A stretch of 64,000 nucleotides of DNA from Escherichia phage Bp7 (NC_019500.1); one strand, 5' to 3'; shown: positions 3,273 through 20,096, counted from the first letter of the stretch. Notes: generated by a model from the letters alone, not told the origin. Numbers and translations: made by a program.

Positions 3273-4421
3273 ATGATTGAATTATATGATAACTTGATGG
3301 CCCTGGTTAAAAACTCGACTAAATCTAAGTTCTTCTTTAAAGACTTTCAGAGTGCGCTAGGAGTCAACTATCGCATCTTTAGTTATAACTATGCCTCGTA
3401 CAGTGATTGGTTGGAAGACGGCGCGCTAGAGGGCCGAGGCATTATGTTTGAAATGGACGAGAACGGTCCAGTACGTATTGCTGCTCGTCCTATGCAAAAG
3501 TTCTTTAACCTTGACGAAAACCCTCTGACCATCGGTCTAGATTTGTCACCAGAAAATATTGACCTCGTAATGGCTAAGGAAGATGGTTCTCTGATTTCTA
3601 CATTCATGGACCGACAGTATCTTTCTGTTAAATCTAAAGGCTCTATCCATTCATCAATGGTGCATGATTCTTTACGGTTCCTTCGTCTCCCTGAGAACGA
3701 GGCTTTTGCCGCACGTCTAGAAGAAATCACCAAAGCTGGGTATACCTGCAACCTTGAATATGTAGCACCTACCAACCGTATCGTTCTGGCTTACCAAGAA
3801 ACAAACCTCATCCTGTTGAACGTTCGTAATAATGAAACAGGTGAATATATTCCGTATGCTGAATTGTTTAAAGATGGTGCCCTGCGTAAGCATTTGGTTG
3901 AAAGCTATGACCTCGCTGAAGGTGATTTCGTAGAAAACATCCGTAAACAAGAAGGTATTGAAGGTTTCATCTTTGTACTGAAAGATGGTACGTTCTTTAA
4001 ACTCAAAACCGCCTGGTACAGTGCACTGCACCATACCAAAGATTCCATTAACAATAACGAACGTTTGTTTGAAGTTGTAGTGGCTGGTGGAACTGATGAC
4101 CTTCGTGGATTGTTCAGTACAGATTCGTTTGCTATCGAGAAAATCGATGCCTTTGAACGTATCCATTTAGATTACTTAGAACAATCATTAGCCTTGTTAG
4201 AAGCAGCGTACTCCCAACTTAAGGGTCGCGACCGTAAGGACTACGCCGTTACTGGTCAACTAATCCTTAAGGACTTTCCAGGGTTGTTCTCTATTCTTAT
4301 GCAGGCGTACGTAGGCGGCATTAATTATGATACGGTCATGGACCAGATTAACTCTGTGTTCTTGAAAAACCATAAAGCCCAAATCCCTGAAAAATATTTG
4401 AAAGAAATTGTGGTAGAGTAG
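3273..4421 (+). CDS. rnlA: RNA ligase 1 (gene 63, tail fiber attachment catalyst)
   Basis: 382 aa; YRIFSYNYASYSDWL...ALEGRGIMFEMD...KEDGSL motifs matching T4 RnlA. Confidence 0.85.
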   Translation: MIELYDNLMALVKNSTKSKFFFKDFQSALGVNYRIFSYNYASYSDWLEDGALEGRGIMFEMDENGPVRIAARPMQKFFNLDENPLTIGLDLSPENIDLVMAKEDGSLISTFMDRQYLSVKSKGSIHSSMVHDSLRFLRLPENEAFAARLEEITKAGYTCNLEYVAPTNRIVLAYQETNLILLNVRNNETGEYIPYAELFKDGALRKHLVESYDLAEGDFVENIRKQEGIEGFIFVLKDGTFFKLKTAWYSALHHTKDSINNNERLFEVVVAGGTDDLRGLFSTDSFAIEKIDAFERIHLDYLEQSLALLEAAYSQLKGRDRKDYAVTGQLILKDFPGLFSILMQAYVGGINYDTVMDQINSVFLKNHKAQIPEKYLKEIVVE

Positions 4422-4449
4422 TTTACATCTCCTCATGATGTGTTAGTAT
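4421..4449 (+). promoter_or_regulatory. Putative early promoter (GTTTACA -35, 17-nt spacer, TAGTAT -10)
   Basis: Motif match; upstream of alc-like ORF. Confidence 0.45.
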
Positions 4450-4479
4450 AGACTTACCAACTAATGAGGAGAAAACAAA

Positions 4480-4980
4480 ATGAATATGCAAATGATTACT
4501 AACGAAATGGTTGTTAAGGCTTTTGGTGACTCTACCGACGGTATCCAAGTTTTTAAAGGTTCTCGTGCAGTAGGTTACCTGACCGATCTTCGTGTTACTT
4601 TAGCTAAAAATGCTAAAAAGAAAATCAAGCAAAAAGAATACTCTACCCGTTACGCTGAAGAAAAGCGTGAAGCCATGCCCGAAGCTGTTAACTCTATGGT
4701 TGAGTTTCTCCGAAACAACCTTTCCAAGTATGATGCTGAGGTGTTCATTAATATTAGCCAACCTAATGTTAAAATCTCAGGCATCACTTTCTATTTGATT
4801 TGTGACCCATTAAGCGACAAGTTTAATCGCCTTGGCATTTCAAGTCCTTACCATACCGCTGAAGAATTGTGTTTTATGTTCGAAACGTACAAAATTCAGT
4901 GCGAAAATCCTAAAACGGTTCTTATTAATTCCCTGTCACGTGATGACATCATCGAGATTATTACCAAATGTCTAAATTAA
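4480..4980 (+). CDS. alc: Alc-like protein (inhibitor of host transcription on cytosine DNA), tentative
   Basis: 166 aa ORF at the position alc occupies in T4 (between 63 and pseT region); size matches T4 Alc (167 aa); identity by synteny and size only. Confidence 0.5.
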   Translation: MNMQMITNEMVVKAFGDSTDGIQVFKGSRAVGYLTDLRVTLAKNAKKKIKQKEYSTRYAEEKREAMPEAVNSMVEFLRNNLSKYDAEVFINISQPNVKISGITFYLICDPLSDKFNRLGISSPYHTAEELCFMFETYKIQCENPKTVLINSLSRDDIIEIITKCLN

Positions 4981-5321
4981 GTATTTACCTTTTAGCTGGA
5001 GCCATTGCAGTAGGTGCTTACGGTTTTATTTCGTATCAATCAAGTCGTATTGATACCCTTACCGAAGAACTGAAAACAACCCAGCAAACAGCTAAACAGA
5101 ACGCTGAAGCTGTAGAGGACCTTCGCGGTCAATACTCTGATATCGAATTCCGTACTACTGAAATGAATGCCCGAATGGATAAAATTAAGGTAGAAAATGA
5201 AAAGCTCCGTAAAGATTCGAAGAAGGCGCACGTGGTGGCAAGTAAGCCAGGACTGGTCGAAAAACAAATCAACAAGTCCTTCGATTCCTTTACAGAAGAC
5301 TTCAGGAGCATTACAGAATGA
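4968..5321 (+). CDS. i-spanin (Rz-like; T4 pseT.3 equivalent)
   Basis: 117 aa; N-terminal TM segment (LSIYLLAGAIAVGAYGFISY) followed by charged coiled-coil; overlaps next ORF. Confidence 0.7.
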   Translation: MSKLSIYLLAGAIAVGAYGFISYQSSRIDTLTEELKTTQQTAKQNAEAVEDLRGQYSDIEFRTTEMNARMDKIKVENEKLRKDSKKAHVVASKPGLVEKQINKSFDSFTEDFRSITE

Positions 5322-5608
5322 TTAAATTATCTGTGGTAGTATTATCTATTGGCTTGTTAGTTGGATGTGCCCAGGATATCCCTGTAGTGCCTAAGCAACA
5401 GCTGCATCCTTCATGGCCACAACCTATTGCCGAACATAATGTTAAATGGCAGGTTAAGGTAATCGATGGTAAAGCTTGGGTTGGAATGCCTTTCGAAGAC
5501 TCCCAAGAACATCGTATTTGGTTGAATGACGTAAAAAGATATGTACAAGACCAGAAATCTATGTTATGTTATTATCGTTCTGGACTAAAAGAGGAGAAGT
5601 GCAAATGA
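5318..5608 (+). CDS. o-spanin lipoprotein (Rz1-like; T4 pseT.2 equivalent)
   Basis: 96 aa; signal peptide with lipobox LLVGC; Pro-rich mature region; adjacent to i-spanin. Confidence 0.7.
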   Translation: MIKLSVVVLSIGLLVGCAQDIPVVPKQQLHPSWPQPIAEHNVKWQVKVIDGKAWVGMPFEDSQEHRIWLNDVKRYVQDQKSMLCYYRSGLKEEKCK

Positions 5609-5711
5609 TTGAGTCTTGTATCGATGGGTCGGATATCATTCTATTTGGCTTTACATGCTTTTGTTTTGGAATCGTGCTTAGCATGTGTATGCATGGTCTT
5701 TTTGGAAAGTA

Positions 5712-5741
5712 GTTTACAAACTCTTGGGAGCAGAGTATAAT
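5712..5741 (+). promoter_or_regulatory. Putative early promoter (GTTTAC, 18 nt, TATAAT), -10 inside hairpin GGAGCA/TGCTCC
   Basis: Motif match. Confidence 0.55.
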
Positions 5742-5775
5742 GCTCCTACGGATTATAAAAATTGAGGAAATTATT

Positions 5776-6075
5776 ATGAAAGAATTATTAGAGAATTACA
5801 TCAAGTGTTCAGACAATTACGTGGATTTATGTTATGGATTGAAAATATCTGAACATGATGAAGATGCGGCGCATCTGGCATTAGATACCGCAGGTAAAGC
5901 CTTGCGTAAAGCAGCTAAAGCCCAGGGCGTTGATATGGCTGAACTAAAGAAACATTTAATTATGTTTATCTCTGCTAACGTCTCTAGCCGGTCGGGTAAC
6001 AAAGCTGTCGCAAAATCAGGTGAAGAACGCACTGAACTACGCATTCAGCTCCTCAAAACCTCTGTTGGGAATTAA
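5776..6075 (+). CDS. Hypothetical protein (pseT.1 position)
   Basis: ORF with RBS gaggaaa 7 nt upstream of ATG 5776; immediately precedes pseT. Confidence 0.55.
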   Translation: MKELLENYIKCSDNYVDLCYGLKISEHDEDAAHLALDTAGKALRKAAKAQGVDMAELKKHLIMFISANVSSRSGNKAVAKSGEERTELRIQLLKTSVGN

Positions 6076-6983
<908 letters not shown>

Positions 6984-6984
<1 letters not shown>

Positions 6985-7181
6985 TGAATAATATCGAAAA
7001 GATTTTTCGTACAATCGAAGAAATTGAAAAACGTAAATGCTTTTTCTTCGGCGTATGGCCTTTAACTGATGGACGTATTGGCCTGGATGTGATGGACTAT
7101 AAAGATGAAGACAAGGTCGATGGTGGTATTTTTAAATCCGCTCCTGAACTCCTTGCCTTCTTGGAAGAACATTATGTATAA
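6984..7181 (+). CDS. Hypothetical protein
   Basis: 65 aa ORF, start overlaps pseT stop (translational coupling). Confidence 0.45.
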
Positions 7182-13523: not shown

Positions 13524-13802
13524 ATGTTTGTAGTTCATACAATTTCAGACTATGGTCCTACCACTACAATGGATTATGGTCATGTAAACCAGTTTATTCG
13601 TCATGTGAATCATGATTACTCATTTGATGTAAATCCGGCTAAAGACCATCCTGTTTGGCGCGAATGCGTCGAACAGGGATTCATTTATGTCCACTTTATG
13701 TCCAAGTTCAAATCTGATGGGCGAATGAGATTTGTGTTCTCTTATCATAAGCGATTAGACTTGCTTTTGGCTGATGTGGCTTATAATAGAATCCATGACT
13801 AA
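13524..13802 (+). CDS. Hypothetical protein
   Basis: ORF from internal ATG following HAD-like gene stop. Confidence 0.4.
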   Translation: MFVVHTISDYGPTTTMDYGHVNQFIRHVNHDYSFDVNPAKDHPVWRECVEQGFIYVHFMSKFKSDGRMRFVFSYHKRLDLLLADVAYNRIHD

Positions 13803-13812
13803 TGAGGTGATT

Positions 13813-15336
13813 ATGATTTTAGATATTTTAAACGAAATTGCTGCTATTGATTCTACTAAAGCTAAAGAAGCCATTATTGCTCGTGAAAAGGACAATGAGC
13901 TTCTGAAACGTGTTTATCGTATGGCTTATACCCGTCGTCTGAACTACGGTATTAAAAAGTGGCCAGAACCTGGATTTACATCTCAATCCTTTGGTATGAT
14001 TACTCTTGAAGACCTTCTTGATTTCGCTGAATTCACATTAGCCACACGTAAGATTACGGGTAATGCGGCTATTGAAGAACTGGCTCAAATCATTGCTGAT
14101 GCTAAGGCCCCGGATGCCGAGGTATTACGTCGTGTAATGATGCGCGACCTTGAATGTGGTGCATCGATTTCTATTGCTAACAAGGTTTGGAAAGGTTTAA
14201 TCCCTGAACAACCGCAGATGTTGGCGAGTTCTTATGATGAAGCTTTGATTAAGAAAAATATTAAATGGCCAGCGTTTGCTCAATTAAAAGCTGATGGCGC
14301 TCGTTGTTTTGCTGAAGTTCGTAACGATGGTGTGACATTCCTTACTCGTGGTGGTAATGAATATCAAGGGCTTAATCTTTTGGCGGCTGAATTAATGGCC
14401 ATGACCGAAGAAGCTCGCCAGCGCCATCCTAATGGTGTTATGATTGACGGTGAATTAGTTTACCATACTCCTAAGGTAGAACCTAAAGCATCTAATGATT
14501 TGTTTAGTATGTTTGATGAGGAACTTCCTGAATTAAGTAAGGCTAAGGAATTCCAAACTGTCGCCGATCGTTCTACGTCAAATGGATTGGCTAATAAGGC
14601 TCTTCAAGGAACTATTACTCCAGCCGAAGCAGCCGGTATGGTATTACAGGCGTGGGATTATGTCCCATTGGATGTCGTATATTCCGAAGGTAAAATTAAA
14701 GGCGATAAGTATGATGTACGCTTTACAGCCTTAGAACTTATGGTTGCTCATAATGTCGTATTGCATGGTGCAACGCGTGTTGAAGCTATCGAAAACCAGT
14801 GGGTTAATAATCTTGAAGAAGCTAAAGTTGTTTATAAGAAATATGTCGACCAGGGCCTGGAAGGCATTATCCTTAAGAACATGGACTCCTACTGGGAAAA
14901 CCGCCGTTCTAAGAATCTTATCAAGTTCAAAGAAGTAATCGATATTGCTTTAGAAGTGGTAGGTTATTATGAACACTCGAAGGACCCTAACAAACTTGGT
15001 GGTGTCGAGTTGGTATCGCGTTGTCGTCGAATTACAAGTGACTGCGGTTCAGGCTTTAAAGATACCACCCATAAGAAAGATAAATCAGGTAAAAAGGTAT
15101 TAATTCCATTGGAAGACCGTCCTGATTTAGACCGTGAACTTCTTATGAAACAAGCTCGTGAAGGTAAGTTGATTGGACGTATTGCTGACTGTGAATGTAA
15201 TGGTTGGGTTCATTCTAAAGGACGTACTGATACTGTAGGTATTTTCCTTCCAATCATTAAAGGTTGGCGTTTCGATAAAACAGAAGCTGATACATTTGAA
15301 GATGTATTCGGTGATTGGTCTCAAACTGGTCTATAA
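13813..15336 (+). CDS. 30: ATP-dependent DNA ligase gp30
   Basis: MILDILNEIAAIDSTKAKEAIIAREKDNELLKRVY...; adenylation KADGAR motif; C-terminus FEDVFGDW; matches T4 ligase. Confidence 0.9.
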   Translation: MILDILNEIAAIDSTKAKEAIIAREKDNELLKRVYRMAYTRRLNYGIKKWPEPGFTSQSFGMITLEDLLDFAEFTLATRKITGNAAIEELAQIIADAKAPDAEVLRRVMMRDLECGASISIANKVWKGLIPEQPQMLASSYDEALIKKNIKWPAFAQLKADGARCFAEVRNDGVTFLTRGGNEYQGLNLLAAELMAMTEEARQRHPNGVMIDGELVYHTPKVEPKASNDLFSMFDEELPELSKAKEFQTVADRSTSNGLANKALQGTITPAEAAGMVLQAWDYVPLDVVYSEGKIKGDKYDVRFTALELMVAHNVVLHGATRVEAIENQWVNNLEEAKVVYKKYVDQGLEGIILKNMDSYWENRRSKNLIKFKEVIDIALEVVGYYEHSKDPNKLGGVELVSRCRRITSDCGSGFKDTTHKKDKSGKKVLIPLEDRPDLDRELLMKQAREGKLIGRIADCECNGWVHSKGRTDTVGIFLPIIKGWRFDKTEADTFEDVFGDWSQTGL

Positions 15337-15337
15337 T

Positions 15338-15520
15338 ATGAAAGCTTATTTAGAAACCGTGGTTATTGGATATAAAGAAGGTGGGGATGTCTCCACTGCA
15401 GTGTCCCAAATTGTCCTTGAATTTGAAAATGAAATCGCGTTCGCTGATTTTAAAGATAATTTCGACCGCTATGAAAAGGGTCCTAAATTTGAAGTGTACC
15501 GTACGCTGTTAGTACTTTAA
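15338..15520 (+). CDS. Hypothetical small protein
   Basis: 60 aa ORF after ligase. Confidence 0.35.
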   Translation: MKAYLETVVIGYKEGGDVSTAVSQIVLEFENEIAFADFKDNFDRYEKGPKFEVYRTLLVL

Positions 15521-15523
15521 TAA

Positions 15524-15541
15524 AGGCCTTCGGGCCTTTTC
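15524..15541 (+). terminator. Rho-independent terminator AGGCCTTCGGGCCT + TTTT
   Basis: Hairpin plus T run. Confidence 0.6.
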
Positions 15542-15574
15542 TGGCATAAATAAGGTTATTAAAGAGGAATTATT

Positions 15575-17659
15575 ATGACCGAACAATTAAATGAAGTGTT
15601 TGAGTCCGAAGGCACACTGCCTACAGTAAACTTGAACCCAAAACTTAAAGTACCCCAGATTTGGAAGATTGGTGACGCAGAATCCCAATTAGTGGCGCGT
15701 ATGGTATCCTACGCTTCTGAAGGTGATGCTATTAAACAGGTTAAGATGGGTGATAAATATGCCCACGTTATCCTTATGAGCCTTTCAGCTAAAGGTTCGC
15801 CTGCCGAACTTAAAGGTGGCCTAGGCCCTACTCCCGTAGATGCGATTAATACTATTTTTGATGTGGTTTATGACCAAGTTAAAAAGCTTCGTATGGATGC
15901 CGTGATGTTCCGTTTCCCTACTAAGAAAATGAAAGGTCAAGGCCCTATCGTTCAACGGATTATCCAACGTTTGGTAGCACAGAAAACAGGTGGACGTTTT
16001 AAAGTAGTTCCGGCTATGTACCAATTTACCGGTAAACATACTTATATCCTAGTAGTTCGTAAACAGGCTGATATCGAAGATATCAAAGGTATGCCAGGAA
16101 TTAATGCCGAATTATACACTAAGGTAGATTCTGATGTCGGTGAAGTTTATATTTCTAAAAAAGAAGGCGTGCAGGTTACTAAAGAAACTGCTATTGCCGG
16201 CAGTATTGCTAAAGTTGAAGAACGTCGCACTGATAAAATGGTTATAACCAAGACTAAGATTTCTCGTCGTGCCATTGCAGCAAGTCAATCGTTAGAATCT
16301 TATCGTAATGAAAGTGAACTGTTTAAGAAATATGAAGCAAATGCCGTAGATTTTAATAAACCTGCAACAGCTCCATTAATCCCTGAGGCCCAGGAAATGG
16401 TTACTAATAACAATTCTCCCGCGGCTAAAAATAAGGTTGCTAATATAGTAGCTGAAGGTACTGCTGAAGAATTGCATTATGATTATAAAATGTTTCCTCT
16501 TCACGGTATAGGTGAAATCCAAGAGAAAATTAAAGATAAAATTCTTGCGGCCATCAAAAACGAACCTTTGACATCTGTTAAAGCTCTAGAAAAATATGCC
16601 TCTGCTATTAATACCGTTTTCGAAGAATACAAAGGTGAATGGCTGGCCCGGCATAACAAAACTCGTAAAGGCCAACCTGACGACCTCTGGAATGAATTGA
16701 CCGATGCGAAGTGGAAAGCCGCCAAGACCAAGTTCATTAAAAAACGTGTATATAGTTTTGCCGGTGTAGGTGGCGGTATTATGGTCGATATTACTATTGC
16801 TCGTGAGGGCTCTAAATATACCCCATCACAAAAGCGCGGCATCAGAGAATATTGTGGCTCAGGATATACAGACATAAATAATCTTCTTTTAGGACGCTAT
16901 AACCCTCAGAACTATGAGGTTATGGGCGAAAAAGATATCGAATCTGCAGTTAATAATTTGGATTCTGCTTTTGAAAATGGCGACCGTATACCAGAAGGCA
17001 TCACAGTTTATCGTGCACAGAGTATGACTGCTCCTATATACGAAGCACTAGTTAAAAATAAAGTGTTCTATTTCAGAAATTTTGTATCCACTTCATTGAC
17101 TCCTATCATTTTTGGACGTTTTGGTGTTACACACGCCGGTATCGGTCTTTTAGAACCGGAAGTTCGCGATGAATTGACAGTCGATAAAAATGAAGAAGGA
17201 ATAACTATTAATCCTAATGAAATAAGAGCATATAAAGAAAATCCTGATTATGTTAAAGTTCAAATAGGATGGGCTATTGATGGGGCTCATAAAGTTAATG
17301 TCGTATATCCAGGAAATCTCGGAATAGAAACTGAAGCCGAAGTTATTCTACCGCGTGGATTAATGGTCAAAGTTAATAAAATAACAGATGCTTCTAATAA
17401 TGATGGAACAACATCTAGTAATACAAAACTCATCCAAGCTGAAGTTATGACAACAGATGAGCTTCAAGAATCTGTGGTATATGATGGTGACGTACTAATG
17501 GAAACCGGCGAGTTGGTCGTATATAAAGATGACTTCGATACTTCCGAAAGCCCTGTATCTTTTGATTCATTTGTTAAATCTACACGGTTTGATGTATTGC
17601 CTCTTTTGGCTTCATGCATAGACCTCTATGACATCCCAGAAAAATTCATCCAAGGGTAA
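15575..17659 (+). CDS. alt: ADP-ribosyltransferase Alt (copy 1)
   Basis: 694 aa; C-terminal ART domain (RGIREYCGSGYTDINNLL..., YRAQ..., FVSTS); size and position match T4 Alt. Confidence 0.85.
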   Translation: MTEQLNEVFESEGTLPTVNLNPKLKVPQIWKIGDAESQLVARMVSYASEGDAIKQVKMGDKYAHVILMSLSAKGSPAELKGGLGPTPVDAINTIFDVVYDQVKKLRMDAVMFRFPTKKMKGQGPIVQRIIQRLVAQKTGGRFKVVPAMYQFTGKHTYILVVRKQADIEDIKGMPGINAELYTKVDSDVGEVYISKKEGVQVTKETAIAGSIAKVEERRTDKMVITKTKISRRAIAASQSLESYRNESELFKKYEANAVDFNKPATAPLIPEAQEMVTNNNSPAAKNKVANIVAEGTAEELHYDYKMFPLHGIGEIQEKIKDKILAAIKNEPLTSVKALEKYASAINTVFEEYKGEWLARHNKTRKGQPDDLWNELTDAKWKAAKTKFIKKRVYSFAGVGGGIMVDITIAREGSKYTPSQKRGIREYCGSGYTDINNLLLGRYNPQNYEVMGEKDIESAVNNLDSAFENGDRIPEGITVYRAQSMTAPIYEALVKNKVFYFRNFVSTSLTPIIFGRFGVTHAGIGLLEPEVRDELTVDKNEEGITINPNEIRAYKENPDYVKVQIGWAIDGAHKVNVVYPGNLGIETEAEVILPRGLMVKVNKITDASNNDGTTSSNTKLIQAEVMTTDELQESVVYDGDVLMETGELVVYKDDFDTSESPVSFDSFVKSTRFDVLPLLASCIDLYDIPEKFIQG

Positions 17660-19714
17660 ATGATGGAAAATTTAAACGAAGTTTTTGATAGCGATTCCGC
17701 TAAAAACTATCCAGTAATAAATCTTAAACCAGGTTCCGGTATCCCACAGATTTTCTCTATTAAAGCACCGGGTAATGATAACCTGGTTGCTCGTATGGTA
17801 TCTTATGCGTCTCAAGGAGACGCTATTAAAATGGTTAAGCCGGGCGACAAATATGTCCACGTTATTCTAATGAGTTTGTCAAGCAAGGGTGCTCCGGCTG
17901 AACTCAAAGGTGGTCTTGGTTCTGACCCACTCGGTACGCTGAATACCATTTTTGATACTGTATACGAACAAGTAAACAAACTTAAAATGGATGCGGTTTT
18001 ATTCCGTTTCCCTACCAAGAAAATGAAAGGTAAGGGCCCTACTGTTCAGCGTGTATTAGCTCGTTTGGCTATGGCTCGTACTGGTGGTAAGTTTAAAGTT
18101 GTTGATGCCATGTACCAATTCACTGGAAAACATACCTATGTTCTTTTAGTACGTCGTGGCACTAATATTGAAGATATCAAGGGTATGCCTGAAATTGATG
18201 CCGAACTTTATACTAAGGTTGAGTCCAAAGTTGGCGAAGTTTATGTTTCTAAGGAAACCGGCCAGTCCGTAAGTAAGGCCGAAGCTGTCTCGGCAAGTAT
18301 AGCTAAGGTTGAAGAGAAACGTACTGATAAGGCCGTCATTACCAAGACTAAGATTTCTCGTCGTGCTATTGCTATGTCGCAATCCTTAGAATCGTCACGA
18401 TTTGAAACTCCTATGTTTAAGAAATTTGATTCTAATGCTGCTGAATTGAATAAACCGGCTACGGCTCCTTTAATGTCAGAAGCAAATGAAATAAAGGTTA
18501 TTTCTAATTCTTTCTTGGCTTTAGAAAATACCATTAGTGCTAATACTGGTGGTATGTCGTTTAAAGACAACCTTCTTATTCCAGAAGATAAAATGGAAGA
18601 AATTAATACCGACATAAAAATGAGAGCTTTTGAGAAATTACATGGATTAAATGTGACTTCAGTAAAAGCCCTAGAAAATTATGCTTCAGTGGTTGATGAC
18701 GTCATCGAAGAATATAAAGGTCCTTGGCTTCAAAAGCTAATGGCTCAACATTCACACCTAGGTTATCACGAAGCAGTCGAGTTGGCTGAAAATTCTTGGA
18801 ATGCTATAAAGACCAAAATTATTCAACGTGAGCTGCGTGTTTACGCTCTTACCGCCGGTTGGCAATTGCATTCTATTATAGAAAATAAAGACGCGTCTCG
18901 TTATACTCCTGCCCAGAAACGTGGTATTCGTGAATATGTTGGCTCCGGTTACGAAGATATGAATAATGTTCTTTTAGGTCTCCATGACCCGAATGTAAGA
19001 AGCAGTATTCTGACTAATGAAGACATAGAAAAAGCTATCAATAACTTAGATTCTGCTTTTGAAAATGGCGAACGTCTACCACCAGGTATTACTCTTTATC
19101 GTTCCCAACGAATGATTCCTGATATTTACTTGGCTATGATTAGCAATAAAGTATTCTATTTCAGAAACTTTGTTTCAACTGCGATATATCCGAATATTTT
19201 TGGTACATGGATGACTGATTCTGGTGTTGGTCTTTTGCCTGACGAAAAACGTCGTGATGTTGCATTAGACAAATCGGATGAAGGTTTAGTATATTCGAAT
19301 AAAGATACTTTAGTAGGTATTGGTTGGGCCTTTACCGGTACAGATAAGGTAAATGTCGTTTTACCTGGTGGAGACTTGGCTCCTTCTAACGAAATGGAAG
19401 TAATTCTTCCTAGGGGTTTGATGGTCAAAATCAATAAAATTACAGATGCTTCATACAATAACGGAACTACTCGTTCTAACAATAAGTTCGTTCAAGCCGA
19501 AGTAATGACTGCAGACGAACTTAATGAAGCCGTGGTGTACGATGGTGATGCTCTGATGGAAACAGGCGAACTAGTTGTCTATAAAGAGGGTAATGAGCTT
19601 TCTTTTGATTCTTTTGTTTCTAATGAGAAGAAAAAGAAATCAGACAGAGGTCTTGGCTTGTTAGCTTCTTGTATAGATATCGACGCTCTCCAGTATAAAT
19701 TTGTACAAGGGTAG
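17660..19714 (+). CDS. ADP-ribosyltransferase Alt paralog (copy 2)
   Basis: 684 aa; collinear similarity to copy 1 along full length (e.g. RMVSYAS.GDAIK, RGIREYVGSGYEDMNNVLLG). Confidence 0.85.
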   Translation: MMENLNEVFDSDSAKNYPVINLKPGSGIPQIFSIKAPGNDNLVARMVSYASQGDAIKMVKPGDKYVHVILMSLSSKGAPAELKGGLGSDPLGTLNTIFDTVYEQVNKLKMDAVLFRFPTKKMKGKGPTVQRVLARLAMARTGGKFKVVDAMYQFTGKHTYVLLVRRGTNIEDIKGMPEIDAELYTKVESKVGEVYVSKETGQSVSKAEAVSASIAKVEEKRTDKAVITKTKISRRAIAMSQSLESSRFETPMFKKFDSNAAELNKPATAPLMSEANEIKVISNSFLALENTISANTGGMSFKDNLLIPEDKMEEINTDIKMRAFEKLHGLNVTSVKALENYASVVDDVIEEYKGPWLQKLMAQHSHLGYHEAVELAENSWNAIKTKIIQRELRVYALTAGWQLHSIIENKDASRYTPAQKRGIREYVGSGYEDMNNVLLGLHDPNVRSSILTNEDIEKAINNLDSAFENGERLPPGITLYRSQRMIPDIYLAMISNKVFYFRNFVSTAIYPNIFGTWMTDSGVGLLPDEKRRDVALDKSDEGLVYSNKDTLVGIGWAFTGTDKVNVVLPGGDLAPSNEMEVILPRGLMVKINKITDASYNNGTTRSNNKFVQAEVMTADELNEAVVYDGDALMETGELVVYKEGNELSFDSFVSNEKKKKSDRGLGLLASCIDIDALQYKFVQG

Positions 19715-19743
19715 TTTACAAACGCCAAGGATGGTGGTACTAT
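19714..19743 (+). promoter_or_regulatory. Putative early promoter (GTTTAC, 18 nt, TACTAT)
   Basis: Motif match. Confidence 0.5.
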
Positions 19744-19771: not shown

Positions 19772-20062
19772 ATGAAATCTGCATTCCGCTTTAACGGTCA
19801 AGAACTGGTAGTTGAAAACGTTATCCCTGCTTCCGAAGAGTTTGACAGTGCAGTTGGTAATGAATTGCGTCGAGTTTTCGGTGAAGATAAGCAATTTGAT
19901 ATCCGTCCTGTTGAGAACTTTTCTCATCCGGAACAAACCGAAAACATTTTTAATGGTGTAGTGACTGGTCAGCTTGAATCTGAAGCTCCTATTTCAGTTA
20001 CGGTGTTTGTTAAAAAGCAACCACTAATGACTGCAGCAGGTTTCATTTCGTTCCGTAAATAA
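19772..20062 (+). CDS. Hypothetical protein
   Basis: 96 aa ORF with RBS gaggag; followed by terminator. Confidence 0.55.
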   Translation: MKSAFRFNGQELVVENVIPASEEFDSAVGNELRRVFGEDKQFDIRPVENFSHPEQTENIFNGVVTGQLESEAPISVTVFVKKQPLMTAAGFISFRK

Positions 20063-20070
20063 ACCCCTAA

Positions 20071-20096
20071 AGGAGAGCGTACGCTCTCCTTTTTTG
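20071..20096. terminator. Bidirectional rho-independent terminator AGGAGAGCGTACGCTCTCCT + T6
   Basis: 20-nt perfect palindrome with flanking T/A runs between convergent genes. Confidence 0.65.

Follow-up and report, generated by a model that had tools for sequence, protein, structure and literature searches.

Why should a phage carry, side by side, two complete copies of the gene for the ADP-ribosyltransferase (ART) Alt, and how did they come to lie there? The question is raised by the alt locus of Escherichia phage Bp7 (genus Dhakavirus), which is held within the 64,000-nucleotide stretch of the Bp7 genome (NC_019500.1) analysed here; this whole stretch is hereafter called the window, and coordinates are counted from its first nucleotide. 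Two open reading frames follow one another directly on the plus strand: alt copy 1 (15575-17659, 694 residues; AEN93923.1/YP_007004247.1) and alt copy 2 (17660-19714, 684 residues, or 683 if read from the second ATG at 17663, the start chosen by annotators in relatives; AEN93924.1/YP_007004248.1). The window proteins are 100% identical to these adjacent Bp7 proteins, which are named 'ADP-ribosylase' or 'Alt-like RNA polymerase ADP-ribosyltransferase' (RefSeq). BLASTP aligned the two copies collinearly from the first residue to the last (395/709 identities, 56%, E = 0). Both matched PHROG 802 ('Alt-like RNA polymerase ADP-ribosyltransferase') over 1-674 of 674 positions (E 3e-263 and 5e-254), and both exceeded the gathering score of PF03496 (ADPrib_exo_Tox; copy 1, residues 379-627, E 4.7e-35; copy 2, E 5.4e-26). 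NCBIfam held no family for either copy. A preliminary description of this DNA had reported back-to-back, collinear alt paralogs of 694 and 684 residues with conserved ART motifs, and in this respect it was accurate: the Arg, S-T-S/A and E-x-E motifs are present in both copies.

Judged from their sequences, the products of both genes are complete and probably active enzymes of the T4 Alt family, which are NAD+:arginine mono-ADP-ribosyltransferases. The comparisons described below lead us to consider it probable that the Bp7 pair is one state of an old alt array, whose copy number varies from one to three among T-even phages and whose catalytic modules have been exchanged, and that both enzymes are delivered from the phage head.

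The two proteins were compared domain by domain with their relatives, using 25 Alt proteins from 12 phages and taking residues 1 to 225 as the N-terminal domain (N-domain). Between the Bp7 copies the N-domains are 67% identical, the middle region together with the ART domain 49% and the ART domain alone 60%; synonymous sites are saturated (synonymous divergence, dS, 1.4-2.0). The two slots of the Tequatrovirus RB68 are likewise 67% identical in the N-domain and 25% in the middle region plus ART domain. N-domain identity across genera is 40-44%. Copy 1 and RB68 slot 1 share 44-50% identity in the N-domain, 81% in the middle region plus ART domain and 93% in the ART domain alone, and the corresponding values for copy 2 and T4 Alt are 40-47%, 69% and 77%. 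For altB of IME08 and RB68 slot 2 the figures are 44% in the N-domain and 52% beyond it. N-domains group by phage genus, catalytic regions group by module type across genera, and the per-domain trees disagree. Copy 1 joins a Dhakavirus slot-1 N-domain to what we term an 'alpha' (T2-type) catalytic module, and copy 2 joins a Dhakavirus slot-2 N-domain to a rare 'beta-prime' (T4-related) module; a further module type occurs in the middle gene of AnYang and QL01.

The same comparison revealed that T4 Alt and RB68 slot 1 (5004-7097 of the RB68 locus, L008) are 99% identical in the N-domain and only 49% identical in the middle region plus ART domain. On sequence grounds, the 'Alt' proteins of the T4-type and T2-type classic phages are different enzyme modules.

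At the DNA level, the propeptide and N-domain of copy 2 (17660-18364, plus strand) are common to the slot-2 and slot-3 alt genes of other Dhakaviruses, with approximately 90-97% identity to those of IME281, IME08, AnYang and VR5 up to gene nucleotide ~630-675. Past this point, identity is 50% or less to other Dhakavirus slot-2 genes and 65-80% to T4 alt and VR5 slot 1. BLASTN homology of copy 2 to its relatives stops at 18364-18367 and returns only in the last codon, at 19711. Copy 2 is a recombinant gene that changes abruptly at 18364/18365. Its exchangeable module, comprising the variable helical region, the ART domain and the C-terminal propeptide, occupies 18365-19710 (plus strand). The similarity of copy 1 to RB68 slot 1 starts at 16255 and reaches 86-92% in the ART core (gene nucleotides 1200-1860), compared with 42-62% in the N-domain and 51-71% in the C-propeptide.

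Module borders fall at a conserved linker (…VITKTKISRRAIA…) and also, in the case of copy 1, at the protease site near the C-terminus. The copy 1 linker (…SIAKVEERRTDKMVITKTKISRRAIAASQSLES…) spans 16208-16309 on the plus strand and forms the 5' boundary of the exchangeable module. On the linker lies the longest exact word common to both Bp7 alt genes, the 26-nucleotide ACCAAGACTAAGATTTCTCGTCGTGC, which encodes TKTKISRRA and is found at 16247-16272 in copy 1 and 18341-18366 in copy 2. This word was considered as a general recombination signal and rejected, being present in both copies only in Bp7 and elsewhere at most once per locus; it may have been left by recombination or gene conversion in Bp7.

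Array size and content vary among related phages. Two genes annotated altA and altB are found in JS10 and IME08, three Alt genes lie in a row in AnYang, QL01, MX01 and C6, the Tequatroviruses RB68 and YUEEL01 have two full-length genes, and Mosigvirus SA35RD and a Klebsiella phage have one alt gene each. Of 40 records sampled at even intervals from the 1,221 phage records that match Alt, 18 contained at least two Alt-matching places. Two tandem alt genes were already annotated in Bp7 and are common in T-even phages, so that the finding as first stated is already known. Alt paralogs in T4-like phages have been on record since 2006 (PMC1524935), and a wider set of targets, the possibility also raised in the preliminary description, has been proposed from two paralogous Alt proteins of another T-even phage (2026; PMC13600099). 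Our literature search returned no paper using the names altA and altB, and nothing on alt among the papers citing Bp7.

The closest record in the phage collection, Dhakavirus vB_EcoM_FB (FB), matches Bp7 at 94.7% over the locus. The altA/altB pairs of JS10 and IME08 and the three-gene arrays share both genus and locus with Bp7; their copy 1 is 96-98% identical to that of Bp7 and their second-slot N-domain 92-94% (residues 1-225). Unlike Bp7 copy 2, however, their second and third genes carry modules that we term 'gamma' (707 residues) or 'delta' (681 residues), the ART domains of which are only 35-38% identical to that of copy 2. The Tequatrovirus arrays (T2, RB68 and YUEEL01) resemble Bp7 in possessing tandem full-length paralogs at the same locus. 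There, slot 1 contains either a T2-type or a T4-type module, joined in both cases to a 99%-identical N-domain, and slot 2 is of the 'gamma' type, whereas in Bp7 a T2-type and a T4-related module coexist.

T4 Alt (NP_049811.1) has the same layout as both Bp7 copies, with an N-propeptide and N-domain, a helical region, an ART domain carrying the R-S-E motifs and a C-propeptide. Its gene likewise sits between alt.1/gene 30 and alt.-3/gene 54, is preceded by a hairpin and a late box and encodes both protease motifs. T4 Alt is 59% identical overall to copy 2 and 50% to copy 1 (64% in the ART domain). T4 has one full alt gene and a remnant, whereas Bp7 has two full genes. The T4 GenBank record labels this remnant, alt.-1/alt.-2, an old duplication of the start of alt. 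In the T4 locus (L004 5034-5455), alt.-1/alt.-2 shares 95% DNA identity with the first 352 nucleotides of the second alt gene of RB68 (L008 7097-9218), and a deletion of approximately 1.7 kb follows it. Because alt.-1/alt.-2 corresponds to the 5' end of an RB68-type slot-2 gene and is followed by a deletion, T4 is better described as a reduced two-gene array than as the bearer of a partial duplication.

The two Bp7 modules differ greatly in abundance. The ART domain of copy 1 was matched at 90% identity or above in 349 phage records (31 at 95-99% and 318 at 90-95%, the listed examples of the latter being mostly T2-type Tequatroviruses) and at 60-80% in a further 18. That of copy 2 was matched at 90% or above in only 3 of 50,697 records (FB, Ec2-ASingh and IME540), and at 60-80% in 178, which are T4-type. 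A scan of IMG/VR returned nothing closer than 69% to the copy 2 module. Besides Bp7 itself, a collection of 5.8 billion proteins contained only two close relatives of copy 2: the IME540 protein P0005, which covers 65% of the query at 94% identity, and the metagenomic protein P0002 (88% identical).

P0002 is encoded on a 2,685 bp contig seen in two samples (L017; ENA ERZ17811656 NODE_16185), on which the order is alt.1, a single alt gene (325-2370) and alt.-3. The first ~630 nucleotides of this gene resemble copy 1 (mostly 88-100% identical, with one window at 80%), and the remainder, from nucleotide ~660 onwards, matches Bp7 copy 2 at 89-100% identity (mostly 97-100%). A crossover between the two linkers of an array such as that of Bp7 would delete the copy 1 module together with the copy 2 N-domain and leave one hybrid gene; by its sequence, the L017 gene looks like the product expected from such a two-to-one event. 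The cultured phage VR5 has the same architecture in slot 1, where a slot-1 N-domain is joined to a T4-type module.

Two further loci depart from the usual gene structure. In a Mosigvirus-like scaffold (L018; ENA ERZ28573362 scaffold_138, 4001-6087), alt is split into overlapping reading frames encoding a 371-residue N-part and a 340-residue ART part, through either a frameshift or a sequencing error; the alt gene of Acinetobacter phage ZZ1 is likewise annotated 'split'. In a distant T4-like contig (L019; ENA ERZ28616334 scaffold_7961), the ligase gene is followed by alt (582 residues, with a weak ART match) and then by a gene for a 541-residue protein, P0192 (3184-4809), which consists of an Alt N-domain and 367 further residues. 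In these C-terminal residues we detected no ART, no Pfam family and no sequence match in the PDB, and they may represent non-ART cargo on the Alt delivery domain.

We sought to establish whether either Bp7 gene had lost the residues needed for catalysis or processing. The ART catalytic domain of copy 1 (16802-17470, plus strand) was delimited by its Pfam match, by motif alignment and by a profile match to the ARTs of C3, VIP2 and iota-toxin; it ends at ELQE632, which aligns with the C-terminal gp21 site of T4. Its catalytic codons are R480 (17012-17014), S505-T-S (17087-17095) and E587-A-E589 (17333-17341), and those of copy 2 are R480 (19100-19102), S505-T-A (19175-19183) and E577-M-E579 (19391-19399), all on the plus strand; in each copy R480 is the Arg of a Y-R motif. 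Among ARTs of the R-S-E class, E-x-E is the arginine-specific form of the motif. The activity of T4 Alt is abolished by Ala at a glutamate numbered E577 (PMC11404850). This residue (E576 by the RefSeq start) corresponds to the second Glu of E-x-E in both Bp7 copies. Both T4 alt (L004 7501-7506) and Bp7 copy 2 (17660-17665) start with ATGATG; therefore, the literature counts E577 and a 7-residue propeptide in T4 where RefSeq gives 576 and 6. Loss of the catalytic residues from one copy, together with its absence from virions, would have marked it as an inactive duplicate in the preliminary description; neither copy lacks these residues.

In T4, the prohead protease gp21 cuts Alt after ITE-6 (propeptide MELITE) and after LTE-619 (PMC5694885). 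L-x-E motifs stand at the aligned positions in both Bp7 copies: LNE at the N-terminus, and ELQE632 or ELNE622 (19517-19528, plus strand) at the C-terminus. Copy 1 is thus predicted to lose the N-terminal propeptide MTEQLNE (15575-15595, plus strand), which has an L-x-E end and aligns with MELITE, and a 62-residue C-terminal propeptide (17471-17656, plus strand) aligned with the 63 residues removed from T4 Alt. The predicted propeptides of copy 2 are MMENLNE and the segment encoded by 19529-19711. The ratio of non-synonymous to synonymous divergence (dN/dS) was 0.06-0.07 for copy 1 against its orthologues and 0.07-0.08 for copy 2 against those of FB and Ec2-ASingh, and it lay at 0.06-0.10 in every domain of both genes (orthologues in FB, Ec2-ASingh and AnYang). 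Both copies are under purifying selection and neither resembles a decaying gene. An assembly artefact or chance reading frames were rejected as explanations, since independent complete genomes also contain the pair and it is subject to purifying selection.

The differences between the two enzymes are unevenly distributed. Most of the N-domain is 65-83% identical between the copies, the linker 90% and the ART core 53-78%, whereas identity is 11-55% in the helical region (residues ~270-405) and 0-25% in the segment from S-T-S to the strand before E-x-E (~530-561), in which copy 1 has an insertion of approximately 10 residues. A profile built from Alt ART domains matches solved ARTs of the binary-toxin and C3 types in two places, around the N-terminal helix and the Arg, and at E-x-E. 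The residues immediately upstream of E-x-E, which we take to be the substrate-reading ADP-ribosylating turn-turn (ARTT) loop of this fold, were positioned by profile alignment to component a of the Clostridium perfringens binary enterotoxin (BEC) and to a C3-type ADP-ribosyltransferase (4xsg). They read PG-NLGIETEAE in copy 1 and PGGDLAPSNEME in copy 2, and are fixed within a module type and different between types. Divergence was mapped on sequence alignments and not on a structure because the full-length model was poor in the ART region; a sequence search of the PDB returned no solved Alt structure and distant toxin ARTs only. The alignment and divergence mapping that the preliminary description had proposed place the peaks of difference in the helical region preceding the ART domain, in the segment from S-T-S to the ARTT loop and in the ARTT loop itself. 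Because the modules differ most at this loop and in the flanking variable segments, the most likely consequence, judged from the alignments, would be two partly different sets of host targets.

The R-S-E toxins of PF03496 (C3, VIP2, iota-toxin Ia and CdtA) belong to the same catalytic fold family as Alt and possess the same motifs. They are distant relatives (E from 1e-9 to 1e-4 over partial alignments), are secreted by bacteria, and differ from Alt in their delivery domains and in their targets, which are actin and Rho.

The N-domain, which in copy 1 spans 15596-16249 (plus strand), is of the PF26846 ('Tevenvirinae_ADPRT') type and is presumed to serve head targeting and delivery. The PF26846 label is precomputed for the Bp7 protein and for the L017 protein. 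A local Pfam search with the N-terminal 270 residues of either copy returned no hit even at E values up to 10, and the middle regions of both copies gave nothing credible in Pfam. A word-indexed homologue search in which the query was the N-domain by itself returned just three short proteins, one of which is the front half of a split alt. In an exhaustive HMMER scan of 1.84 billion representative proteins, N-domains of this type were found in only 70 clusters; the matches start at or near the N-terminus wherever the matching stretch is reported, and most of the proteins are 600-712 residues long.

An AlphaFold model of copy 2 residues 1-225 had a predicted local distance difference test score (pLDDT) of 81 and a predicted template-modelling score (pTM) of 0.81. 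Nearly all Foldseek matches to this model were GNATs, although weak ones (E 0.008-0.08, TM-scores 0.25-0.42). Ahead of the long helix 89-106 stands an invariant loop, …LKG(G)LG…, reminiscent of the GNAT acetyl-CoA loop. The N-domain is possibly GNAT-like in its modelled fold, which we offer as a lead and not as a result. In its logic of a constant head-entry part joined to variable cargo, Alt resembles MuF-fused phage effectors and the T4 internal proteins with a capsid-targeting sequence (PMC9503650, PMC9026906). The likeness goes no further than this logic, for the Alt N-domain has no MuF match, carries no Pfam label but PF26846 and is not a MuF domain. Unlike the variable cargo of MuF-type proteins, that of the Alt N-domain has so far nearly always been an ART, with one distant second-slot exception in which none is detectable.

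Expression signals are concentrated at the 5' end of the pair. On the plus strand, a hairpin read from the sequence (GGCCTTCGGGCC, followed by a T-run; 15525-15540) is the presumed terminator of alt.1. Next come CATAAATA (15545-15552), which agrees with the T4 late-promoter box TATAAATA at 7 of 8 positions and is the putative late promoter of the alt operon, and a GAGG ribosome-binding site upstream of copy 1 (15564-15567). The exact box TATAAATA is absent near Bp7 alt. Upstream of T4 alt the same hairpin is followed by the canonical box. In 15 of 17 related loci, the hairpin and ATAAATA occur once per locus, solely 5' of the first alt gene; a hairpin with (C/T)ATAAATA upstream, one of the features by which membership of the Alt family was judged, is present at the Bp7 pair. 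Within the alt genes, scans for sigma-70 promoters and terminators gave no excess over shuffled sequences. The stop codon of copy 1 (TAA, 17657-17659) abuts the ATGATG of copy 2. Because there is one promoter-like element per locus and TAA stands directly before ATGATG, the array most likely forms a single late transcription unit with translational coupling.

These observations can be assembled into a working model. Both genes would be transcribed late, as one unit, from the box 5' of copy 1, with copy 2 translationally coupled. The short N-propeptide and the N-domain of approximately 220 residues would carry each protein into the prohead core, where gp21 would trim it after LNE at the N-terminus and after ELQE632 (copy 1) or ELNE622 (copy 2) at the C-terminus. 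The mature enzymes would be ejected with the DNA and would ADP-ribosylate arginines of host proteins such as the RNA polymerase alpha subunit. Over evolutionary time, a genus-specific N-domain would be joined at the linker (…KTKISRRAIA…) to catalytic modules that move between slots and genera by homologous recombination. A single-copy Alt homologue has been found packaged in an RB69-like phage by mass spectrometry (PMC6563131); our literature search retrieved no virion proteomics of a two-Alt phage. With roughly balanced confidence, we would go further and regard the alt locus as a cassette array of injected effectors, in which a PF26846 N-domain, possibly GNAT-like, is recombined at the linker with interchangeable, mobile modules. 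In this broader form, Bp7 unites a T2-type module with a rare T4-related one, hybrid and collapsed arrays occur, and one distant second slot lacks a recognisable ART. A limited literature search uncovered no paper describing exchange of alt modules.

How the pair arose, and what it is for, can also be explained differently. Recent tandem duplication of one alt gene, in place in this lineage, followed by divergence, would fit two adjacent, collinear genes of similar length as well as the N-domains, which resemble each other more within a genus (67%) than between genera. Such an event is highly improbable: synonymous divergence is saturated, the copy 2 module is nearer to T4 Alt than to copy 1 while that of copy 1 is nearer to T2-type RB68, the recombination breakpoints are sharp, and the two-slot array is found in other genera, with T4 keeping a remnant. 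Of the tandem duplication put forward in the preliminary description we therefore retain the adjacent, collinear paralogs and set aside a duplication specific to Bp7, with which neither the dS values nor the T4-like ART domain and recombinant breakpoint of copy 2 agree. A second alternative holds that one copy is catalytically dead and is kept as a structural or internal head protein, or is a decaying duplicate. Copy 2 would be the likelier candidate, owing to the Ala at the third residue of its S-T-S motif, and Alt has, besides its catalytic role, been described as a protein of the head core (PMC11404850). Yet the copy 2 reading frame is intact, its Arg, first Ser and both Glu are conserved, its ART domain has a dN/dS of 0.08 against orthologues that keep S-T-S, and IME08_B has S-A-S, indicating that the motif tolerates variation within the family; a dead copy is accordingly unlikely. 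We are only a little less doubtful of redundancy, in which the copies would share their targets and the array would serve to increase or buffer the amount of enzyme injected. The two enzymes belong to one clade of ARTs and share the arginine-specific E-x-E, and T4 manages with one copy at approximately 40 molecules per head (PMC9958956). However, the modules are just 49% identical over the middle region and ART domain, their type-fixed differences cluster in the ARTT loop and in the variable segments beside it, and arrays combine different module types instead of repeating one.

The most credible of the alternatives, although still a tentative one, is that the modules are counter-defence effectors, each type directed against a different host toxin or immunity protein, and that the arrays turn over in an arms race. 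Rapid module-level turnover and patchy distribution, with the copy 2 type in 3 of 50,697 records, would be expected of such proteins. T4 Alt has been reported to ADP-ribosylate the MazF toxin. Viral ARTs have, moreover, been described as fast-evolving conflict proteins (PMC9503650). Conversely, modules within each type are under strong purifying selection. A counter-defence role would be compatible with an array of exchangeable modules, and neither excludes the other. Our preferred account, an old and variable array whose two enzymes are head-delivered, is itself weakened by several points. Packaging, cleavage, catalytic activity and targets in Bp7 are extrapolated from T4. Grouping of N-domains by genus could reflect either independent duplications or gene conversion between slots. 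The S-T-A of Bp7 copy 2 is a strain-specific substitution within a catalytic motif, T4 and the closest orthologues (FB and Ec2-ASingh) having S-T-S. The promoter-like box reads CATAAATA rather than the canonical TATAAATA. The full-length AlphaFold model of copy 2, built on a 37-sequence alignment, was poor (mean pLDDT 49, ART region below 50), and Foldseek found nothing significant with it. Coverage of the L017 contig is low (~2.5x by its name) and it may be an assembly chimera; a simple chimera is not the obvious explanation, however, because its switch point lies approximately 40 nucleotides upstream of the 26-nucleotide word, the only long exact word common to the Bp7 genes.

In this picture, the model phage T4 is a deletion derivative of a two-gene array. 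The name 'Alt' in T2-type and T4-type phages covers catalytic modules that are only about half identical behind a nearly identical N-domain, and which natural phages mix. The module should therefore be typed before T4 Alt biochemistry is extrapolated to T-even phages from therapy or the environment. Chimeras found in nature, moreover, mark a cargo-swap point in a head-delivered protein and could aid the engineering of phages that inject chosen enzymes. If the cargo of P0192 is not an ART, the Alt N-domain would be a general delivery handle.

The surroundings of the pair retain T4 synteny completely. After DNA ligase (gene 30) come alt.1, the two alt copies and alt.-3, followed by gene 54 on the reverse strand. 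The ATP-dependent ligase gene (13774-15336) and alt.1, which encodes a small Phage_blade protein and ends at 15520, are the 5' neighbours; alt.-3 (19772-20062), encoding a DUF5498 protein, is the 3' neighbour, and genes 54, 48 and 29 lie beyond it on the opposite strand. A T4 early-promoter-like element (GTTTAC-N14-GTGGTACTAT, 19714-19743, plus strand) abuts the stop codon of copy 2, serves alt.-3 and marks the 3' edge of the array; in Mosigvirus SA35RD an equivalent is annotated immediately 3' of alt. Where alt.-3 and gene 54 converge lies a strong hairpin with T-runs on both sides (20069-20092), a likely bidirectional terminator that is annotated as such at the same place in SA35RD. In the window as a whole, TATAAATA occurs 20 times against 6.7 expected, and 15 of these occurrences lie on the minus strand between 36322 and 51078. 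This cluster at 36-51 kb is consistent with T4-type late promoters of the structural gene block.

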